Source: Candidatus Cloacimonadota bacterium | Lineage (GTDB): Bacteria > Cloacimonadota > Cloacimonadia > JGIOTU-2 | NCBI GenBank assembly: GCA_049903315.1 | Contig: JBNGBT010000003.1 | Coordinates: 1 to 64,000 of the forward strand | DNA: 64,000 nt | Direction of reading: 5' to 3' | Shown here: positions 43,353 to 63,860 of the stretch, piece by piece | How positions within the stretch are numbered: position 1 is the stretch's first letter | How the letters are laid out: the number at the start of each line of letters is the position of its first letter | Position numbers and translations under genes: made by a program | Notes under the pieces: generated by a model | Database searches by the model: none | Told to the model about the DNA's origin: nothing | What the model saw: only the letters and a program-made list of their open reading frames with translations

Positions 43353-45260
43353 TTACTTCGAGATAAACTGAACCGGATCAAGAAATGCCCTGGCAACTTC
43401 GGTTGTTCGTAACTGATCAATATCACTTGTATGGAAGAATATGAGCAAATCGTGGGTTCTGTCGAAATCCTGATTTCTTCGAAATTCATAATTTCGCAGC
43501 ATTTTATTCTGAAGAGTATATTTCACATCAATTTCTTGAGCATAAGGCGGCCAGAGCATGAGTGTCACGTCTTTTTTTTGTATGTAATAACCGAATTGGC
43601 TAAGAGCCCAGAATGGTTTGATTGCTATCATAATGCCACCAGACATATTGCTTGCATCTACCCAACGCGAAAGATCCTGATCAAAAAGCAGCTTGCGTCC
43701 CTGGCTTCTCACCTCAGACCTTTCGATGTCAGATTGATACAGAACAACCGGAAGATCCATCTGCACACCCGTATTAGGCGAGTACACCTGGGTAATCTCT
43801 TCTAAATAAGGCATATAGATCGCAGCAGATTCAATTGGGGCAGTTTTGGAAAAGATGAAATCAAGTGAAATTTCCACAAAGCTTTGCTCTGCAAATGCGG
43901 TGATAAGTGCAACGAATTTGCAAAGATCAAAACCGCTATTGCTTCTAAGGTATCCCTGTGCTTGGAAGGTTGTCCGCAATGGTCCTGCTTCAATCATTTC
44001 AATACTGTATGTCGAATAATCAAATGAGCTCTGGTAGAAGATACCGTTATATGTCATTATGATATCTTCCCCTTCAGACAGAACTTCATCATCAGAGTAG
44101 TAACCATCAGCATTTGCATCAAGCCATACTTTATCCAATAATGTGAAATGGTTTTTATTCAAATTAAAGCGCAGTATTCCTGTATTCACCTGTATGACAT
44201 TCTCTTTGTAACGCGTAGTAACACCGGATTTGAAATTCATTTTTGCCAGATCTTTGCCATAAAGAAGGGCAAATTGCTTATCTTCATTTGCTTTGAAGCT
44301 CGTTTGAAAATCGATCTGAGATTCTCTAAAGCTACCATCGTTCCAAGTTGTATTCGCTTTGATCTGATATGGAATATCCTGACCGGATGGTTCTTTGAGA
44401 AGAAGAACTGACTTCTCATATACTTTTCCTGAAGGAAATTCTATTACTCCCGTGCAAGGTGTATTACTAAGGTCGATCTTGTTTGGATTTTTGACTCTGA
44501 ATGTGACAGCATTTCCTTGGGTATAATTTGTTTTTGTAATTTCGTATTCCGGTTGAGATGAAATATCTTTAACTTTCTGTTGAGTTTGAGGAGGTGATGC
44601 AAATATTTTTTCCTCGTATTGTGAAGTTATGAGTTTGACATCATCAATATATACGATTTCATTTTGAGATGGTTTCCATCTGAAGAAATTGAGGTCAACG
44701 ATTTTTTTAATATTGATCTTGTCAGACATTTTGTCGATGGGAATGGAAAATTTGTTCCATTGTTGCGGTTCTAGAAACAGATCATATTTAAACCGATCTT
44801 CACTGCGGTCTTTAATTTGAAGAATTATCCTCACTTTAGATTCAGAAGGATTATATATCTCAAAATTCAGCGCTTCGAAGTTTGACCACCGTTTTGGAAA
44901 ATACTGCAGGAAAAGCTTTGGAGCGCTTCCTAAGTTGGCAAGAAACTCTACTTTCCCGGAGTGGCTTCCGCTTGAAACAAACTGGTTTGACTGATAGAGC
45001 ATGACGTCTTCATGACGCCATTTTTGCAATTCTTCCGGTGTTTCAAAATCACTGAGCATGAGGAATCCACCTTCAGGACTATATCCATCTTTCTCAGCTT
45101 CTTTAAAAACATCACTTGCGTCGTCAATCGAGTCATAAACCGCACTCTGGATCGGTTCAAAAATGTTGGAAATTAATGGAAAAATATCGAGAATATGAAA
45201 TGCAATAACAACACCAACAACAATCAGTATTGAAATGTAATCTCTTTTGTAAAACTTCAT
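43353..45260 (-). CDS. Membrane-anchored protein with a carbohydrate-binding-like module and a YetA/exo-rhamnogalacturonan-lyase-like N-terminal region
   Basis: N-terminal TM; SDFE..WSNFEALNFEIYNP..WNKFSIP..IYIDDVKL; IPYQ..WNDGS, VNTGILRF, EAGPLR. Confidence 0.5.
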   Translation of the reverse strand: MKFYKRDYISILIVVGVVIAFHILDIFPLISNIFEPIQSAVYDSIDDASDVFKEAEKDGYSPEGGFLMLSDFETPEELQKWRHEDVMLYQSNQFVSSGSHSGKVEFLANLGSAPKLFLQYFPKRWSNFEALNFEIYNPSESKVRIILQIKDRSEDRFKYDLFLEPQQWNKFSIPIDKMSDKINIKKIVDLNFFRWKPSQNEIVYIDDVKLITSQYEEKIFASPPQTQQKVKDISSQPEYEITKTNYTQGNAVTFRVKNPNKIDLSNTPCTGVIEFPSGKVYEKSVLLLKEPSGQDIPYQIKANTTWNDGSFRESQIDFQTSFKANEDKQFALLYGKDLAKMNFKSGVTTRYKENVIQVNTGILRFNLNKNHFTLLDKVWLDANADGYYSDDEVLSEGEDIIMTYNGIFYQSSFDYSTYSIEMIEAGPLRTTFQAQGYLRSNSGFDLCKFVALITAFAEQSFVEISLDFIFSKTAPIESAAIYMPYLEEITQVYSPNTGVQMDLPVVLYQSDIERSEVRSQGRKLLFDQDLSRWVDASNMSGGIMIAIKPFWALSQFGYYIQKKDVTLMLWPPYAQEIDVKYTLQNKMLRNYEFRRNQDFDRTHDLLIFFHTSDIDQLRTTEVARAFLDPVQFISK

Positions 45261-45264
45261 GATT

Positions 45265-46251
45265 TTACTCTTTTTTTTTATAATATTTTTGAGACTCTTT
45301 TAAAAAAATACCGGTATATCCATATTCGTGAGCGAGTTTGAATGCACATTCTATCTTCGCTCGCACTTGTTCATTTAGAGTTAAATTTTTTGAGTATGGA
45401 GATGTTCCAAGACAGAGTTCATTTGAGTGGAACATAAAATTAATCCATTGGATACCTGACTCAAATAAGCGCCGTGTAATATGTTCAAAGATTTTCACAG
45501 GAATGCGAATATCCGAGGGCCGGAACATCATATTTCCAACTCCTTTATAACCAAAGGAGTAAGCAGCAGAGCGGACAATGCTCATTCCTTTCATATTCTT
45601 GAAAATGTCACCTTTTATTCCGGTAACTGGTACTTCAAGTACGGTGTGAGGATTTTCTGTGTTTGCGTTTTCAGTGATATCATTTTCTGATGGATAAAAG
45701 GGATGATTGGGAATCTTTGAGGAATCACGAGAGATTATTTTTTTGATTCCTGTGATCTTCCTGGTCACATTCGCCGGAGATAATGAGCTGTCCGCAACGT
45801 ATCCATGCTCGTAAAGCCAGTGCAGTGTTCTCGCATCTACTCCCCATTTACCAGCCCTATGAGAACGAGCAGTAATTCCAAAGTTTTTCACAATTGCTTC
45901 ATCTAAACGTGACATTTTGAGGTCGAAGAGGTCTTGAGGTAATTCAGCCTGGATACCCTCGAGCATGGTTTCTTCAACGCCAAATTTGTTGGGTTTAAAG
46001 AATGGTGGAGTACTCCACACATGCAGATGATGGCCGATTTCACAAAGATGCTTGTCAGCATATTTTTTCAGAATATTGACCGACTCACTCTTCGTGGCGA
46101 CCTCGTAGGTAATAAGATAGGTTGGTTTCAGATGATATTTCTCACATAATTCTTGAACGAAGTGAATGCCAAAAATATTTGTTACCCGATTTTCCTTAAA
46201 TGAAAACCAGTCAGCTTCAGTGTCGATAGTTATAAGAAAATACTTCATCAT
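45265..46251 (-). CDS. WalW-like polysaccharide deacetylase (CE4 superfamily)
   Basis: FLITIDTEADW, EIGHHLHVWSTPP, HRAGKWG, DSS, FHSNEL. Confidence 0.8.
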   Translation of the reverse strand: MMKYFLITIDTEADWFSFKENRVTNIFGIHFVQELCEKYHLKPTYLITYEVATKSESVNILKKYADKHLCEIGHHLHVWSTPPFFKPNKFGVEETMLEGIQAELPQDLFDLKMSRLDEAIVKNFGITARSHRAGKWGVDARTLHWLYEHGYVADSSLSPANVTRKITGIKKIISRDSSKIPNHPFYPSENDITENANTENPHTVLEVPVTGIKGDIFKNMKGMSIVRSAAYSFGYKGVGNMMFRPSDIRIPVKIFEHITRRLFESGIQWINFMFHSNELCLGTSPYSKNLTLNEQVRAKIECAFKLAHEYGYTGIFLKESQKYYKKKE

Positions 46252-54312: not shown

Positions 54313-55179
54313 GTGATGAAAGATGTCATGAAACCAAAAAAGATCTTCATGAAAATTAAATTTCGAATATTTATTCTTATAAAAGCATTATTACAGCCAA
54401 TCATTTACTCGAACAAGTTAAAAAAGAAACTAATATTTATTATTGCATGTCAACGTTCCGGAACCAGCATTATGGTTAAGGTATTTGAGAAGGATTTTCG
54501 GACAAAAGTATATGAAGATGAACATAGTGCTATTACATCCGAAGATACTAATAACTTCATCCGTTTTAATTCTTTTGAATCACTCTCTAAGATATTCAAA
54601 AAAGTCCATGCTAAAATAATTATTACAAAACCACTAGTTGAGTTACAGAATATTCTTTCTTTTTTTACATTTTTCCCCGGCTCGGGAGCAATATGGATAT
54701 ACAGAAATTATAAAGATGTTGCTTTCTCAAATATTGCACACTTTGGTGTCAAAAACGGTCACAATAACCTGAGACCTATCTTATCGAACGAGCAAAACAA
54801 CTGGCGCTCTCAAAATCTTCCGGTTGAGATCAGAGAAGTTGTTCAAAAATATTTTGATGAAGAGATGAGCTCTTATGATGCTGCCGCTTTATTCTGGTAT
54901 GTCAGGAATGCCTTGTTTTTTGAGTTGAATCTGGATAAAAGAAACGATGTGACCATGTGTAAGTATGAGGATTTTGTGCAAAAGCCAAAAGATAATATGA
55001 GAAGGATTTACAACTTTTTTCAAATTAACTATCCTGGTGACAAGGTCGTGGATGAAGTCCATGCAAGGGCTACAGGGAAAGGTGAGACTTTAGAATTGTC
55101 CGCTCCAATAGCAGGGCTTTGCAAGAACTTGTATCAAAAAATGGAACAAGCTTACAAAGAGTGTTTAGATAAGCAGTAG
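54313..55179 (+). CDS. PAPS-dependent sulfotransferase family protein
   Basis: IIACQRSGTS (5'-PSB), IYRNYKDVAFS (3'-PB), KYEDFVQKP; exact start uncertain. Confidence 0.85.
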   Translation: MMKDVMKPKKIFMKIKFRIFILIKALLQPIIYSNKLKKKLIFIIACQRSGTSIMVKVFEKDFRTKVYEDEHSAITSEDTNNFIRFNSFESLSKIFKKVHAKIIITKPLVELQNILSFFTFFPGSGAIWIYRNYKDVAFSNIAHFGVKNGHNNLRPILSNEQNNWRSQNLPVEIREVVQKYFDEEMSSYDAAALFWYVRNALFFELNLDKRNDVTMCKYEDFVQKPKDNMRRIYNFFQINYPGDKVVDEVHARATGKGETLELSAPIAGLCKNLYQKMEQAYKECLDKQ

Positions 55180-56338: not shown

Positions 56339-57847
56339 TTATTTGATTGCTGCCCTGATTATCAGTCTTTCATCTTTACTGAAGAAAAAATTATAGCTGA
56401 TCAATACAAAAAAGATCGTTTGTATAAAAGCGATAGTAAAAATAATTTTATACGAAGTGGTTAAAAAACCTTTTGAGATAAAATGATAAACAAATAATAT
56501 TAAAGCCGGACGAATAATATTTAAAAGAAACTGCGAATAGTAATGTTTGAGGTCAAGTTGCAAAATTCTAGAAATATATATTGGTTGGATGATAAGTTTC
56601 ATTATCATCATAGGAATTGCCGTTCCCATCGCAACGCCGCTGATTCCAAATTTTTTTACTAAAAGAAGGCTTAGTACTATGTTGAAAACACCCTCAACGA
56701 TATTAGAGTAAGCCCAGAATTTGGTCTTTGAAATACCGTATAGAACAGTTTTAGTCGGGAACTGTGCTAAAAATATTACTGTCGAGATGGTTATTATAAA
56801 TAGAACCTGATATGCATCCGAGTAATTTCCCCCCATCCATCTTAATATGAAATCTTTGCCGTAAAATATTATTGAAAGTCCAATAAATACAGCTATATAT
56901 GTAGACAACTTTGTCATGAACATAAATTTATCTCGGATGGATTGATAGTTCCCTGCCCCATCTTCCTGGCTGATGTATGTTTGGAAAATGCCAGTAGCGT
57001 TTGTGAAGAACATTATGAAATAAACGATTAAACGAAAACCCACATTGTAATGAGTAACTGCAGCTAAACCAATGAAGGTTGTTATAACAATAGTGTCTAC
57101 CTTGAAACGCAATGTATCTGCAAGTTGCGCAATGAAAGTGAAGAATGAATATGAAAACAGAGTTTTGAATTTACTCTTATCAAAATATTTTAATCCAATT
57201 TTGATTGAAGGATATTTAAAAATAACGTAAATTACATGGAATGCAGATATAAAAATGTTGCAAATAAAATAAATCCACGCAATACTAATAAGGCCATTAC
57301 CGCTACTTACAACGATAAAGATCAATCCATTTTTCAATATCAGAATGATAATGTTTGCCAGCTTAGAGACCATATAGTTCATATGTGCATTCAAAATTGC
57401 ACCAAACACACTAATGGGGGGCGAGATCGCAGTATTGATGCCCAAGATCAGTATTATTGTCTGAAACTGTTTCAAACTCAATGGATTTTTTACAATTATT
57501 TTCGCGCCGAATATTAAACCTACGGTTAGAAACAGCATCGCCACAGAAACACCAAGATATATAAAGAAAGAGGTGCTTGTTATCTTCGACATGCCCTCTT
57601 CATTTTTTTCACCGATAGCCCGGGCTAGATACCGAACAACCGCGGTACTGAAACCCATTCTCAGAAGAACATAGTAATCAAGGAAAGTCATTACAAGTAT
57701 CCATAAACCATAAGTTTTGTCACCCAGGTTGTGGATGAGGAACGGGAGCATGAAAAACCCAATGATAATTTGAAGCACAACTGAAATGGTTATGAGAATA
57801 GAACCTCTGAAAAGTTTAACGCCACGATTTTTCACTGATGATTCCAT
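56339..57847 (-). CDS. Wzx-type oligosaccharide flippase
   Basis: About 12-14 TM segments, LG..YGLW, GFSTAVVRY, LSLLLV.KFGISGVAMGT. Confidence 0.9.
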   Translation of the reverse strand: MESSVKNRGVKLFRGSILITISVVLQIIIGFFMLPFLIHNLGDKTYGLWILVMTFLDYYVLLRMGFSTAVVRYLARAIGEKNEEGMSKITSTSFFIYLGVSVAMLFLTVGLIFGAKIIVKNPLSLKQFQTIILILGINTAISPPISVFGAILNAHMNYMVSKLANIIILILKNGLIFIVVSSGNGLISIAWIYFICNIFISAFHVIYVIFKYPSIKIGLKYFDKSKFKTLFSYSFFTFIAQLADTLRFKVDTIVITTFIGLAAVTHYNVGFRLIVYFIMFFTNATGIFQTYISQEDGAGNYQSIRDKFMFMTKLSTYIAVFIGLSIIFYGKDFILRWMGGNYSDAYQVLFIITISTVIFLAQFPTKTVLYGISKTKFWAYSNIVEGVFNIVLSLLLVKKFGISGVAMGTAIPMMIMKLIIQPIYISRILQLDLKHYYSQFLLNIIRPALILFVYHFISKGFLTTSYKIIFTIAFIQTIFFVLISYNFFFSKDERLIIRAAIK

Positions 57848-60176: not shown

Positions 60177-60979
60177 TTTTGCCTTTGCATTTCAAAATTT
60201 TTATTAAAAACAAAGAAGGTATTTCCGTCATGGTCCTTGAAGAATTTGTCCAGAAATTGTGAAAGAAACAAAAGGAGTTCATTAAACCAACGGAATAATA
60301 TACTATTATTTGCCATAAGAATATCAGAGCTGAAAAATAATTTGCCGATCGGTTTAATGATTCTATATCGACATTTATTATAAAATGGAAAGATTATGGT
60401 ATTTTTGTGATGTAATTTCAGATTGTTTTTGTTAAACAGTTCGATATAATCCTGCTCTGTCCTCCTGAACCATTTTGAGCCACTGAAGGATTCAATCCCT
60501 GTGGCCTCAAATAGTAATATTTTTCCAGAATATGTTAGACGATTTGATAGGACCTCAAGCACGTATTTGATTTGTTTGTCAGTTAAATGGGCAAAAACTG
60601 CAAAAATGTATATTATATCAAATTTCGTATGTGCAGGGAATTTGGCAGAAAAAGTAATTTTTCTTTTATGGGCTGAACCTCTTTTTTTCTTTGCTCTTTT
60701 TATCATGCTATGTGCCACATCATAACCCCAGACAGAACAGTTGCTCAGAAGGTTTCTCGTGTAGATAGAATAGAATCCGTCACCGCATCCGAAGTCCAAT
60801 ACTGTTATGTTGTGGCTTTGTTCACTATACTCTGAAATTTCTTTTCCGAGCAGATTGAGTAATACCTTTCTGCGTTGATAGTAATAAGGGATTGGGCTGA
60901 TAGTATAAAAATCTTCTCCCCTGTAATAATATTTTCTTTTTCCTCGGTTTTCCCAATATTCTCTGTTAAAATTAATCAT
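60173..60979 (-). CDS. Class I SAM-dependent methyltransferase
   Basis: VLDFGCGDG, GYDV, FDII, VFAHL, GKILLFE. Confidence 0.88.
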   Translation of the reverse strand: MINFNREYWENRGKRKYYYRGEDFYTISPIPYYYQRRKVLLNLLGKEISEYSEQSHNITVLDFGCGDGFYSIYTRNLLSNCSVWGYDVAHSMIKRAKKKRGSAHKRKITFSAKFPAHTKFDIIYIFAVFAHLTDKQIKYVLEVLSNRLTYSGKILLFEATGIESFSGSKWFRRTEQDYIELFNKNNLKLHHKNTIIFPFYNKCRYRIIKPIGKLFFSSDILMANNSILFRWFNELLLFLSQFLDKFFKDHDGNTFFVFNKNFEMQRQK

Positions 60980-62837
60980 GTTTTACCTCATCTAGTTCCT
61001 TGAGCCTTTCTAGTCTTCGAGTTATTCCAAGTTCCTTACCGTTTTTGTCTACAACTCTGGTGCTTCCATCAATAAATCCTGTTTTCCAGTTTATTGCATT
61101 TGGAAATTCTTCTCGACATCCCCAAAGAAATGGAACGGGGAAATAGCCCTTTCTAAAGATTTCATAGAAGCCGTTTGCTGAATATGGATTTATGATATTT
61201 GTTTCTATGTCACGAATAAGGATCCAGGCTCTGTTCATTAAATCCTCAAATTTTTCCTGCATCAATTTATTATCAATAAAATCACGTATGTTATTTAATT
61301 CTCGATAGTGAGGATAATGTTTGATTGAACTTTTGGTAATTCTAATACTTTCGTTTATAATTTCCGGATTTGCGAGAAACAACGCCTCAGAATAACTTAC
61401 AACATGGATAATTTCGGGGGAGTCTGATTTATTATACTCCACATCGCTCATAAGTGCTGTGACAGCAGACAATTGTCTCTTTGCTTTTTCTAAATCTGGT
61501 GATAGGTAATTTAATCCTGCTCGAGGTTGATAAATCACCTTGAATGCCTTATCTTCAAGTGTTCTCACGGTTTTTAATAAAACTCGTGCTCTGATCAGGT
61601 CTGCCAGTCCGGATGTAAACTTCGGTGTATTTAACATGTTCTGTAAAATCAAGAATCTTATGCCGGACTTTTTTGCCATTTTTGCAGCAATGTATGTAGC
61701 AGCAATATAGGTCACATCATCACCTCCGCGAAAGGCAAAATGATGGGGAACGTTTGGTTCAAAAGGTTTTCCGGTTTTTGCTATGAATTTCAGCGCGTCG
61801 AAATGCTGGGTAAGATTTTCTTTCAGTGTGAGAGGACCTCTACCATCCAATTGATTGAACCACCAGAAAGAGAGAGCGTGCCAAGCCATATTAAGATTTT
61901 TTTCAAGGATTTTTGCCATTGTTTCGACCTTGTTTGTTCCAGAATATGACCTAGTAAGCATTGGAAGAGAATCAGACCAGATGGCTTTTAATTCAAACTC
62001 GGAATTAACAGGAATGCCGCCACCATTTGGTCTGTCTCCCCAATTTTCTCCGAAGTTTGATTGGCTGAGTTGTGATGAACCAACCGATACAATATCTAAT
62101 AATTTGCTCTTCGAAAGCTCTTTTAACCAATCAGAAAATAACGCTAAAGCTTCTTCACGTTTTTTTATATAAGGACCGATATGACATCTTATCAAGGGTA
62201 GGAGGCCATTTTTTTTTGCATAGGACAGCCTATCGATTAGTGTGTCATCTCTCTGCCCAAAATGGGGATAATTATATTCATTGGTAGCAATGGATTTGTG
62301 ATGAAGACCTTGCGTGATCAGCTCATTTCCAAAACCGTATAATATTTTATCATATTGAGATTGTTGTTTATAGGTTTCAGGAATCCTTGCTGATGGAACG
62401 TGGAGTTTCTCAAGAACTTCTGTTATTTTTTCATCACCCATAAACGTAGTAAATCGTCCGTTAAATCGTTGCTCAATCAGATCACAGGCATCTTTTAAAC
62501 CTGCAAAAAACATATTGTCAGCAAGTTTACAATTTTGTGAATGTAGAATTTTACTAGTGTCGATCTTGTGAACCAACGTGCAAAAAATGTCAGCCCCTTC
62601 ATATGGATCGAGCCTGTAACTAAAACCTAAATGAGTTATTCGGTTTTTTAATATCCAATCTTCAATCAACCCGAAGTGTTGATTGCTCGATATTTTGCTT
62701 ACCGCATCTGAAATAAGCTCATTTCCAATGATTACATCGAATCCGCATTGTTCTAGAATTTGCGATATAGTGATAATACCCAAAGTGTGAGCATCGACAC
62801 TTGGCTTGATAATACCAAATCTATAATTATTTTTCAT
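60972..62837 (-). CDS. Cobalamin-binding (DxHxxG) mutase-like protein of unknown function
   Basis: N-terminal DAHTLG..GFDV..LGFSY..FAG B12-binding domain fused to a ~450-aa alpha/beta domain; no CxxxCxxC. Confidence 0.75.
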   Translation of the reverse strand: MKNNYRFGIIKPSVDAHTLGIITISQILEQCGFDVIIGNELISDAVSKISSNQHFGLIEDWILKNRITHLGFSYRLDPYEGADIFCTLVHKIDTSKILHSQNCKLADNMFFAGLKDACDLIEQRFNGRFTTFMGDEKITEVLEKLHVPSARIPETYKQQSQYDKILYGFGNELITQGLHHKSIATNEYNYPHFGQRDDTLIDRLSYAKKNGLLPLIRCHIGPYIKKREEALALFSDWLKELSKSKLLDIVSVGSSQLSQSNFGENWGDRPNGGGIPVNSEFELKAIWSDSLPMLTRSYSGTNKVETMAKILEKNLNMAWHALSFWWFNQLDGRGPLTLKENLTQHFDALKFIAKTGKPFEPNVPHHFAFRGGDDVTYIAATYIAAKMAKKSGIRFLILQNMLNTPKFTSGLADLIRARVLLKTVRTLEDKAFKVIYQPRAGLNYLSPDLEKAKRQLSAVTALMSDVEYNKSDSPEIIHVVSYSEALFLANPEIINESIRITKSSIKHYPHYRELNNIRDFIDNKLMQEKFEDLMNRAWILIRDIETNIINPYSANGFYEIFRKGYFPVPFLWGCREEFPNAINWKTGFIDGSTRVVDKNGKELGITRRLERLKELDEVKHD

Positions 62838-62861: not shown

Positions 62862-63860
62862 CTATGTCGTGGGATGTACGAGTGACCACATAAAATGATT
62901 AAAATCAGCTTTTGCTGCAACGCGATTTAATGTAAATATATTTGATTTTCTGTCTACAAAATTGCTGTCTGTTGAGAGAGCTGCATCATAATATTTGCTT
63001 GTTATTTCGACTATTTCATTATTATAATCACCGTTTGGATAACAGAAAAACCTAATTTTTTTGTTAATTTTATTTTCCAATGCAGTTTTAGAATCCCTAA
63101 TCTCGTGTATGCTCTCAGTTCTGGTTAGTTTTGTTAAAATTGGATGCGTGAGTGTATGGGAACCGAATTCAACATATTGCGGTGACATTTTTTTGATCGT
63201 ACTATAATCTAACATACGGTAATTTATTGCATTTTGAGGATCTATCTTAACCTTAAGGTCTTGTTGTATCTGGAGCAGTAATTTAATAAGTTCAGATGGA
63301 TGAAGATTCTTCAATAAATTCTTTAGGATTTTATATGCTTTAGACTTGTCTGTTCTGTTAAGTAGCCTAAAGTACGATTCCCCATTATTAGGGATATTGA
63401 TTTTCAAAGAGTCTATCTTTGTTTGAGAGATGATGTATTCGAGAGTATTGACCCAAATCCATGAATCGCGGTTAATGAAATCTGCTGTTAAGAATATGGA
63501 AACAGGAACGTCGTATTTCTTCAATATGGGATATGCTAATGTATAATTGTTCATATACCCATCATCAAAGGTTAATACTACAGAATATTTGGGTATTGAT
63601 ATTTTCCCATTTAAATAATCTACCAGTTCTTGAAGACTAATAATGTTGTAATACTTTTTAAGATATTTAATCTGCCGTTCAAAAATCGTGATATCAAGAC
63701 TAACATTTATATGATCTCGACTATTCGGCTGGTGAAAATTATGATACATCAAAACAACAATCTTTTGCTTGTTAATTATTCTGAGAGTATGATGAATATG
63801 ACTTTTGCATAAAGAGATCCTTATTGCTTTTTTAATAGTGTCCGATATTGATGTGTTCAT
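62862..63860 (-). CDS. Polysaccharide deacetylase (CE4)
   Basis: LMYH, LTFDDGY, GSHTLTHPIL, FCYPNG. Confidence 0.9.
   Translation of the reverse strand: MNTSISDTIKKAIRISLCKSHIHHTLRIINKQKIVVLMYHNFHQPNSRDHINVSLDITIFERQIKYLKKYYNIISLQELVDYLNGKISIPKYSVVLTFDDGYMNNYTLAYPILKKYDVPVSIFLTADFINRDSWIWVNTLEYIISQTKIDSLKINIPNNGESYFRLLNRTDKSKAYKILKNLLKNLHPSELIKLLLQIQQDLKVKIDPQNAINYRMLDYSTIKKMSPQYVEFGSHTLTHPILTKLTRTESIHEIRDSKTALENKINKKIRFFCYPNGDYNNEIVEITSKYYDAALSTDSNFVDRKSNIFTLNRVAAKADFNHFMWSLVHPTT

Follow-up and report, generated by a model that had tools for sequence, protein, structure and literature searches.

A single-chain B12 protein with the predicted fold of a fused glutamate mutase, and its opine dehydrogenase partner, in a surface-polysaccharide locus of Candidatus Cloacimonadota

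About a dozen classes of adenosylcobalamin (AdoCbl) enzymes are known, and Zhang, Rodionov, Gelfand and Gladyshev, who listed them in 2009, predicted one further B12 family (PMC2667541). In the available text of that paper, the family occurs in 11 bacteria, carries a distant B12-binding domain at its N-terminus, always adjoins an octopine/nopaline dehydrogenase (PF02317) and in several organisms has D-Ala:D-Ala ligase (Ddl) and asparagine synthase (AsnB) nearby. Class, substrate and any link to glutamate mutase are left unassigned in that text, which calls for experiments. Here we analyse a B12 protein, P0001, encoded in the first 64,000 nt of contig JBNGBT010000003.1 of a Candidatus Cloacimonadota bacterium (GCA_049903315.1); this whole stretch is the window referred to below. 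The N-terminal B12 domain, the PF02317 neighbour and the Ddl/AsnB context all recur in loci of the P0001 family, which very probably is the family of 2009, as judged from architecture and context. An earlier, sequence-only reading of the window had described an enzyme that fits no recognised class. Its proposal of an S-E-like fold is now given substance; the family, however, had already been flagged. A literature search, with most subscription journals outside its coverage, found no experimental assay of this family.

The fold predicted for P0001 is that of a fused glutamate mutase, with a B12 domain followed by a barrel. With glutamate mutase (GlmS/GlmE, EC 5.4.99.1; structures 1cb7, 1ccw, 1i9c and 6h9e) it shares the His-on Rossmann domain, the barrel and, by alignment, the residues Gly68, Arg149 and Glu330, and the base-off/His-on signature DxHxxG...SxL...GG is matched by D15-H17-G20, S73 and G113. 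A further likeness is the fusion of distant P0001 relatives to the MutL/GlmL family. P0001 differs from glutamate mutase in being one chain, S then E, and in being tied to an opine dehydrogenase, not to methylaspartate ammonia-lyase. The full-length model, built from a 98-row alignment, has a mean pLDDT of 91 and a pTM of 0.91. In a Foldseek search the best match was glutamate mutase E (E 5e-12), followed by the ornithine and lysine aminomutases and, after these, by methylmalonyl-CoA mutase (MCM). In VIA-align, 1cb7_B gave Z 27.0 over residues 195-608 (375 aligned, root-mean-square deviation 3.2 Å, 14% identity), and the top eight rows were all AdoCbl mutases (GlmE 27.0 and 26.6, lysine and ornithine aminomutases 23.4-26.5), with Z values of 16-19 for the MCM barrel, 16.9 for the best non-mutase barrel and 15 for pterin-binding barrels. 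In the model the C-terminal part is a TIM barrel that superposes on GlmE and on aminomutases, with GlmE as the best superposition; the sequence-only reading had named such a superposition as support for its S-E-like fusion. Residues 1-113 aligned with the B12 small subunit of the genome's own MCM (HHalign 96.9%, E 1.4e-10), and the B12 domain aligned with a GlmS-like domain at 71%. PF02310 is faint on P0001 itself (E 0.1), and residues 1-166 folded without an alignment reached a pLDDT of 39; the B12 domain rests on the motif, the profile alignment and the full-length model. In acyl-CoA mutases (MCM, IcmF) the barrel precedes a C-terminal B12 domain or the B12 domain is a separate small subunit, whereas in P0001 it is N-terminal.

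Direct sequence searches of Pfam, NCBIfam and PDB gave no match for P0001, and no plasmid match was found. All nine motif-like segments on which the sequence-only reading relied were located: DAHTLG (residue 15), RCHIGPY (217), GSSQLSQ (253), NGGGIP (271), WHALSFWWF (319), DGRGP (331), EPNVPHHFAFRG (360), QPRAGL (437) and HVVSYSEA (478). At their core positions, 98 relatives of 46-89% identity show no or almost no variation, and therefore these motifs are not chance. His17 is kept in 96 of the 98 alignment rows, the remaining two being gaps. The absence of a radical-SAM cysteine triad also holds, since the six cysteines form neither CxxC nor CxxxCxxC; this separates P0001 from B12-dependent radical SAM enzymes, which carry the CxxxCxxC triad. 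It is quite likely that His17 is the cobalt ligand and that the cofactor is the adenosyl form of B12. The host genome encodes CobA/BtuR and a split MCM, and therefore it can likely make AdoCbl, to judge from its gene content; at 96% completeness it gave no GlmE match and no PduO match. In locus L006, a PduO adenosyltransferase gene starts at the mutase stop codon.

A non-radical role for P0001, as a methylcobalamin-linked methyltransferase component, a lyase or a noncatalytic B12-binding protein, would agree with the NCBI names of its relatives, which are at most 'cobalamin-binding protein', with the divergent B12 domain (PF02310 E 0.1), with the S-adenosylmethionine (SAM) methyltransferase gene that adjoins it here and with the lack of a MutL-family gene in 5 of 36 genomes tested. 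We consider this quite unlikely. The barrel groups with mutases and not with pterin-binding barrels (Z 15 against 27), the residue Glu484 discussed below is conserved, MutL fusions and a PduO neighbour exist, and a methyltransferase is found in only 6 of 80 loci. Corrinoid methyltransferases of the MetH and MtaC type combine the B12 domain with a pterin- or homocysteine-binding barrel or with a four-helix cap. P0001 has no Pfam or NCBIfam match, and since its first beta-strand starts at residue 6 there is no space for a cap at the N-terminus.

MutL-family genes were present in 31 of the 36 genomes, including one without the P0001 family. Another contig of the host genome encodes two long proteins of the MutL family (PF13941), about 970 and 630 residues in length (G000:C69:15213-18116 and 63063-64958), with no mutase adjoining, and long frames of similar sizes occur in 9 of 9 genomes tested from the host phylum. 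This pair was not counted as the reactivase of P0001, given its location and the spread of MutL, also where the mutase family is missing.

An opine dehydrogenase accompanies the P0001 family. Among mutase loci of GTDB genomes it is present in 26 of 27, in 25 of them directly upstream; among metagenome loci, which are partly redundant, it is present in 45 of 80, and in 41 of the 56 whose upstream DNA spans 1.1 kb or more. All 8 mutase-bearing genomes of the host phylum encode it, against 16 of 232 genomes overall; in genome G217 two contig ends each carry part of the cluster. In the reverse direction, the best 30 dehydrogenase loci, drawn from 108 of 401 genomes with the dehydrogenase and biased to close relatives, had the mutase nearby in 28 (25 within 1.5 kb and 3 within about 4 kb), and the other two had none within about 6 kb. 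It is very likely that the mutase and the dehydrogenase share a pathway. The sequence-only reading had seen neither a partner subunit nor a reactivase gene in the window. A Pfam scan of 27 window proteins encoded beyond 29 kb likewise saw no reactivase and no separate S subunit, but a conserved and very likely functional partner, this dehydrogenase, is there. A subgroup 50-60% identical to P0001 (L067, L068, L076-L078, L080, L081, L088 and L022) has no adjacent dehydrogenase; in the Aminicenantes genome L022, one lies about 6 kb upstream of the mutase.

The dehydrogenase of the window aligns over residues 2-348 with Arthrobacter CENDH (1bg6), with R107 at Ala111 and G195 at Asn198. R107 and G195 are the counterparts of A111R and N198G in ArODH, a pair that was shown experimentally to shift specificity to L-Asp (PMC10787698). 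The dehydrogenase of the window thus carries the Arg/Gly pair of the acidic-amino-acid dehydrogenases (mODHs) of that study. In its available text, enzymes with the Arg/Gly pair use L-Asp best and L-Glu well, strongly prefer pyruvate, make an R centre and, one enzyme excepted, barely use 2-oxoglutarate; neither physiological role nor genomic neighbour is given in that text. All 70 mutase-linked dehydrogenases carry the pair (38 of 38 when dereplicated at 70%), as against none of 7 unlinked ones, an eighth unlinked sequence being too distant for this alignment. R32 predicts acceptance of NADPH, and H199 and D295 correspond to catalytic residues.

For the mutase active site, a broadened 61-row family alignment was matched to GlmE by HHalign (98.4%, E 7.7e-14), and eleven GlmE-type sequences were aligned, one of which (L151) has the same residues as the solved enzyme at the positions published for it. 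According to the available texts, Arg66, Arg149 and Glu171 of glutamate mutase hold the glycyl fragment, Arg100 and Tyr177 hold acrylate, the carbonyls of Gly68 and Asn123 line the adenosine cavity (PMC10947579), and Glu330 touches the adenosyl group (PMC4413051). In the alignment P0001 appears to keep Gly68 (G221), Arg149 (R296), Glu330 (E484) and probably Asn123 (N271), and Glu484 is Glu in 60 of 61 diverse family members and Asp in one. Of the arginine claw of Arg66, Arg100 and Arg149, only Arg149 remains. Arg66 is replaced by H219 with the invariant R217 beside it, Arg100 by Q259, Tyr177 by W326, His291 by R439 and Lys326 by V480, and Glu171 has no acidic counterpart on its strand, where the local register is uncertain. 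In the GlmE rows, by comparison, Arg66, Arg100 and Lys326 are invariant (11 of 11), and Glu171, Tyr177 and His291 are kept in 10 of 11. Invariant residues of the P0001 barrel are R217, H219, Q259, W326, R333, R370 and R439. The segment QPRAG (437-441) is letter-identical to GlmE 64-68 and yet aligns to GlmE 289-293; the identity was taken as coincidence.

As far as aligned residues can tell, the radical-generating side is largely conserved and the substrate side is rebuilt. Because Glu171, Tyr177 and two claw arginines are lost, the substrate is probably not free glutamate. An ordinary glutamate mutase with a remodelled pocket, converting L-Glu to threo-3-methylaspartate, would account for the best fold match and for the retained Arg149, Gly68 and Glu330, and a true GlmS-E fusion does adjoin a homologous ATP-grasp gene in the polysaccharide cluster of a relative (L064). 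With Arg66, Arg100, Lys326, Glu171, Tyr177 and His291 all replaced and no match of P0001 to PF06368 above the curated cut-off, we give this explanation little probability. P0001 would thus work like a glutamate mutase yet departs from it at the substrate site, and hence it is not filed as one here.

We tentatively favour, as the best explanation, that P0001 is an AdoCbl carbon-skeleton mutase acting on a glutamate-pyruvate opine, and that an ATP-grasp ligase joins the mutase product to exopolysaccharide. In this pathway, N-(1-carboxyethyl)-L-glutamate would be formed by the dehydrogenase from L-glutamate and pyruvate and rearranged by the mutase to the 3-methylaspartate opine; the ligase would then place the product on a de-acetylated amino sugar of the exopolysaccharide. 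If the reaction resembles that of GlmE, Glu484 would assist Co-C homolysis and hydrogen would be abstracted at C4; the substrate would then fragment into acrylate and an N-substituted glycyl radical, and these would recombine. Since GlmE chemistry needs a gamma-carbon radical, the glutamate opine, as the sole fit among Asp/Glu-pyruvate opines, was chosen as substrate. The loss of Glu171, which hydrogen-bonds the free glycyl amine in GlmE, and the new invariant arginines would fit such an N-alkylated tricarboxylate. Given an AdoCbl cofactor and a shared pathway, the exact substrate and the order of steps seem to us evenly balanced between right and wrong.

The loss of Glu171 would also suit a substrate without an amino group. 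In a reverse order of steps, the mutase would act on a free acid (2-oxoglutarate, another 2-oxo acid or an acidic amino acid) and the dehydrogenase would then make a branched opine; we regard this as possible but on the unlikely side. The preference of this dehydrogenase type for Asp-sized acids would suit 3-methylaspartate, and a glutaminase gene follows the mutase in L012, the sole GTDB locus without the dehydrogenase. However, related dehydrogenases use pyruvate and, one enzyme excepted, hardly 2-oxoglutarate in the available text of PMC10787698, two of the three claw arginines are replaced, and a claw-intact S-E glutamate mutase fusion in the same genus (L043/L064) has no dehydrogenase nearby.

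The lysine and ornithine aminomutases KamDE (1xrs, 8t0v) and OraSE (3kow, 3kp1) have a barrel like that of P0001 (Z 23.4-26.5) and an equivalent of the catalytic Glu, Glu338 in ornithine aminomutase (OAM). P0001 differs in its single chain, in the N-terminal position of its B12 domain and in having no conserved lysine for pyridoxal phosphate (PLP) in that domain, where OAM Lys629 has no counterpart. We take the OAM lysine to lie about 11 residues after the His ligand; position 28 of P0001 is Leu, Ile or Val in 98 of 98 rows, and in three alignments Lys stays below 85% in every column from 12 to 143. With no Lys conserved near the B12 His, PLP is probably absent. This finding would also suit a PLP-free aminomutase, in which nitrogen migrates. 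Either a pyruvate imine formed by the dehydrogenase would stand in for the PLP aldimine and beta-glutamate would result, or the nitrogen of the opine would shift along the pyruvate half, yielding an N-(2-carboxyethyl) amino acid. Such an enzyme would explain why aminomutase barrels tie with GlmE (Z 26.5 against 27.0) and why linkage to the dehydrogenase is almost constant and in one case extends to fusion, and AsnB-like neighbours without an N-terminal Cys (L091, L096) would fit it as well. Against it, free imines hydrolyse and would require channelling, a saturated secondary amine migrates poorly by radical chemistry, and Foldseek and profile matches favour GlmE; we find it unlikely. A broader proposal, a widespread AdoCbl isomerase class that uses a dehydrogenase-made pyruvate adduct instead of PLP, with beta-glutamate or N-(2-carboxyethyl) amino acids as products that, depending on the lineage, are ligated to polysaccharide or D-amino acids or built into amides, also has a low probability in our view.

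Several observations weigh against the favoured explanation. Sequence identity between P0001 and GlmE is only 13-14%, and structurally the match to lysine 5,6-aminomutase ties with that to GlmE (Z 26.5 against 27.0). HHalign of the close-family alignment A1 with GlmE gave nothing (E 0.58); since only the broadened alignment worked, residue equivalences near Glu171 are uncertain. Replacement of the acrylate holders Arg100 and Tyr177 by Gln259 and Trp326 speaks against an unchanged acrylate site. Related dehydrogenases favour L-Asp over L-Glu in vitro (PMC10787698), and in 15 of the 56 metagenome loci with 1.1 kb or more upstream, the fetched DNA contains no dehydrogenase. Most mutase loci lack a ligase and lie outside polysaccharide clusters, and therefore the acceptor step would be locus-specific. 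A literature search found no opine of this kind on a polysaccharide. The polysaccharide acceptor step is the weakest part of the favoured pathway.

Amide-forming neighbours of the mutase vary, and include ATP-grasp ligases of the window type (L060, L065, L117, L166), Ddl-like ligases and one ATP-grasp fusion. ATP-grasp genes resembling L-amino-acid ligases occur in 15 of 80 metagenome and 4 of 27 GTDB loci; several of these loci are capsule clusters that also encode DegT aminotransferases. AsnB-like enzymes occur in 6 of 80 metagenome loci. Many loci carry the mutase-dehydrogenase pair alone. From this variety and the pair-only loci it follows that the product is likely a small acid, used free or ligated. 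At the window locus the mutase likely helps to make an unusual acidic amino-acid decoration on surface polysaccharide. In eight loci (L016, L020, L059, L061, L063, L185, L188, L195) the mutase and dehydrogenase stand with a Ddl-like ATP-grasp ligase that scores below the Ddl cut-off, and L020, L059, L061 and L063 also have an ornithine-racemase-like gene.

In the window, genes for the deacetylase, mutase, methyltransferase, dehydrogenase, ATP-grasp ligase and flippase form a minus-strand run with gaps of at most 30 nt or overlaps (Table 1).

Table 1. Positions of P0001, its domains and the genes of its run in the window
Feature	Coordinates	Strand	Remarks
Polysaccharide deacetylase	62862..63860	-	PF01522; 24 nt upstream of mutase
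Single-chain B12 enzyme P0001, 621 aa	60972..62837	-	N-terminal B12-binding Rossmann domain fused to GlmE-like TIM barrel (predicted)
B12-binding domain, residues 1-~150	62388..62837	-	D15-x-H17-x-x-G20, S73, G113; His17 codon 62787-62789
Catalytic TIM barrel and helical tail, residues 195-608	61014..62255	-	G221=Gly68, R296=Arg149, E484=Glu330 of GlmE (aligned)
Class I SAM-dependent methyltransferase, 268 aa	60173..60979	-	8-nt overlap with mutase stop, 4-nt overlap with dehydrogenase start
Opine dehydrogenase, 360 aa	59094..60176	-	PF02317 E 2e-42; 1bg6 E 1.8e-59; R107/G195, H199/D295, R32
ATP-grasp carboxylate-amine ligase, 403 aa	57878..59089	-	4 nt after dehydrogenase; predicted to join product to amine
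Wzx-type flippase	56339..57847	-	Pfam; Wzy-dependent exopolysaccharide cluster

The deacetylase would provide free sugar amines. Look-alikes of the ATP-grasp protein in the Atlas bear the names carboxylate-amine ligase and putative D-aspartate ligase, at 0.98, which we use as a lead only. Only 6 of 80 metagenome loci contain genes like that of the SAM methyltransferase, which for this reason was not accepted as a core partner and appears to be an occasional module member. The exopolysaccharide cluster extends to about 41.4 kb with a pyruvyltransferase, a sulfotransferase, an export protein, chain-length proteins, an O-antigen ligase-like protein and glycosyltransferases. A sulfotransferase (54313-55179) lies on the opposite strand within this minus-strand cluster, and likewise in G217. 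Two cluster proteins have no confident family: one of 635 residues (43353-45260) with a faint PcRGLX match, and one of 328 residues (45265-46251), with no family, which has a 34% homologue in the L064 cluster. Rfam at gathering score gave no family in G000:C33:62000-69999, a segment that covers the likely operon start.

A second S-E fusion, a near-canonical glutamate mutase, was found in the same genus (L043:883-2808, contig G213:C6; wider view L064). It keeps Arg66, Arg100, Arg149, Glu171, Tyr177, Lys326 and Glu330, and its single frame is interrupted by one in-frame TAA. The gene immediately before it in its polysaccharide cluster encodes an ATP-grasp protein 24% identical to that of the window; there is no opine dehydrogenase. 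This suggests that mutases were recruited to surface-polysaccharide loci more than once.

The P0001 family is large, with 2973 clusters among 7999 candidates scored, and a profile search over 1.84 billion representatives gave 554 matches, many of them fragmentary. Source names of relatives include Cloacimonadota, Aminicenantes, Acidobacteriota, Bacteroidota and Bacillota, and the closest named relative (64%) is from a Candidatus Cloacimonetes genome. Occurrence is patchy, with 8 of 232 genomes in the host phylum. Fusions occur in the 46 relatives scanned, to the MutL/GlmL family in 3, to an opine dehydrogenase domain in 1 and to an ATP-grasp domain in 1; PF06368 matches weakly in 9 of the 46, of which 2 are above the cut-off. 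The distant fused relatives are P0167, P0182, P0225, P0159 and P0255 (MutL/GlmL in three, RimK/GshB-type ATP-grasp in one, and opine dehydrogenase in one, a fragment). In 17 of 23 distant full-length rows, Cys replaces the Asp two residues before the His ligand.

In the PylB/PylC/PylD pathway of pyrrolysine, a radical mutase, an ATP-grasp ligase and an NAD(P) dehydrogenase build an unusual amino-acid derivative, PylB being a radical SAM enzyme. The P0001 module may follow a similar logic; this is an analogy, and no homology is claimed. The P0001 family has been predicted since 2009, and its fold and the Arg/Gly pair of its partner narrow the substrate to an Asp/Glu-pyruvate opine or immediate precursors. 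If the favoured pathway is true, it would mean a further AdoCbl reaction and a physiological role for opine dehydrogenases of the acidic-amino-acid type, and it would lead one to expect a substituent that depends on B12 on the surface polysaccharides of bacteria.

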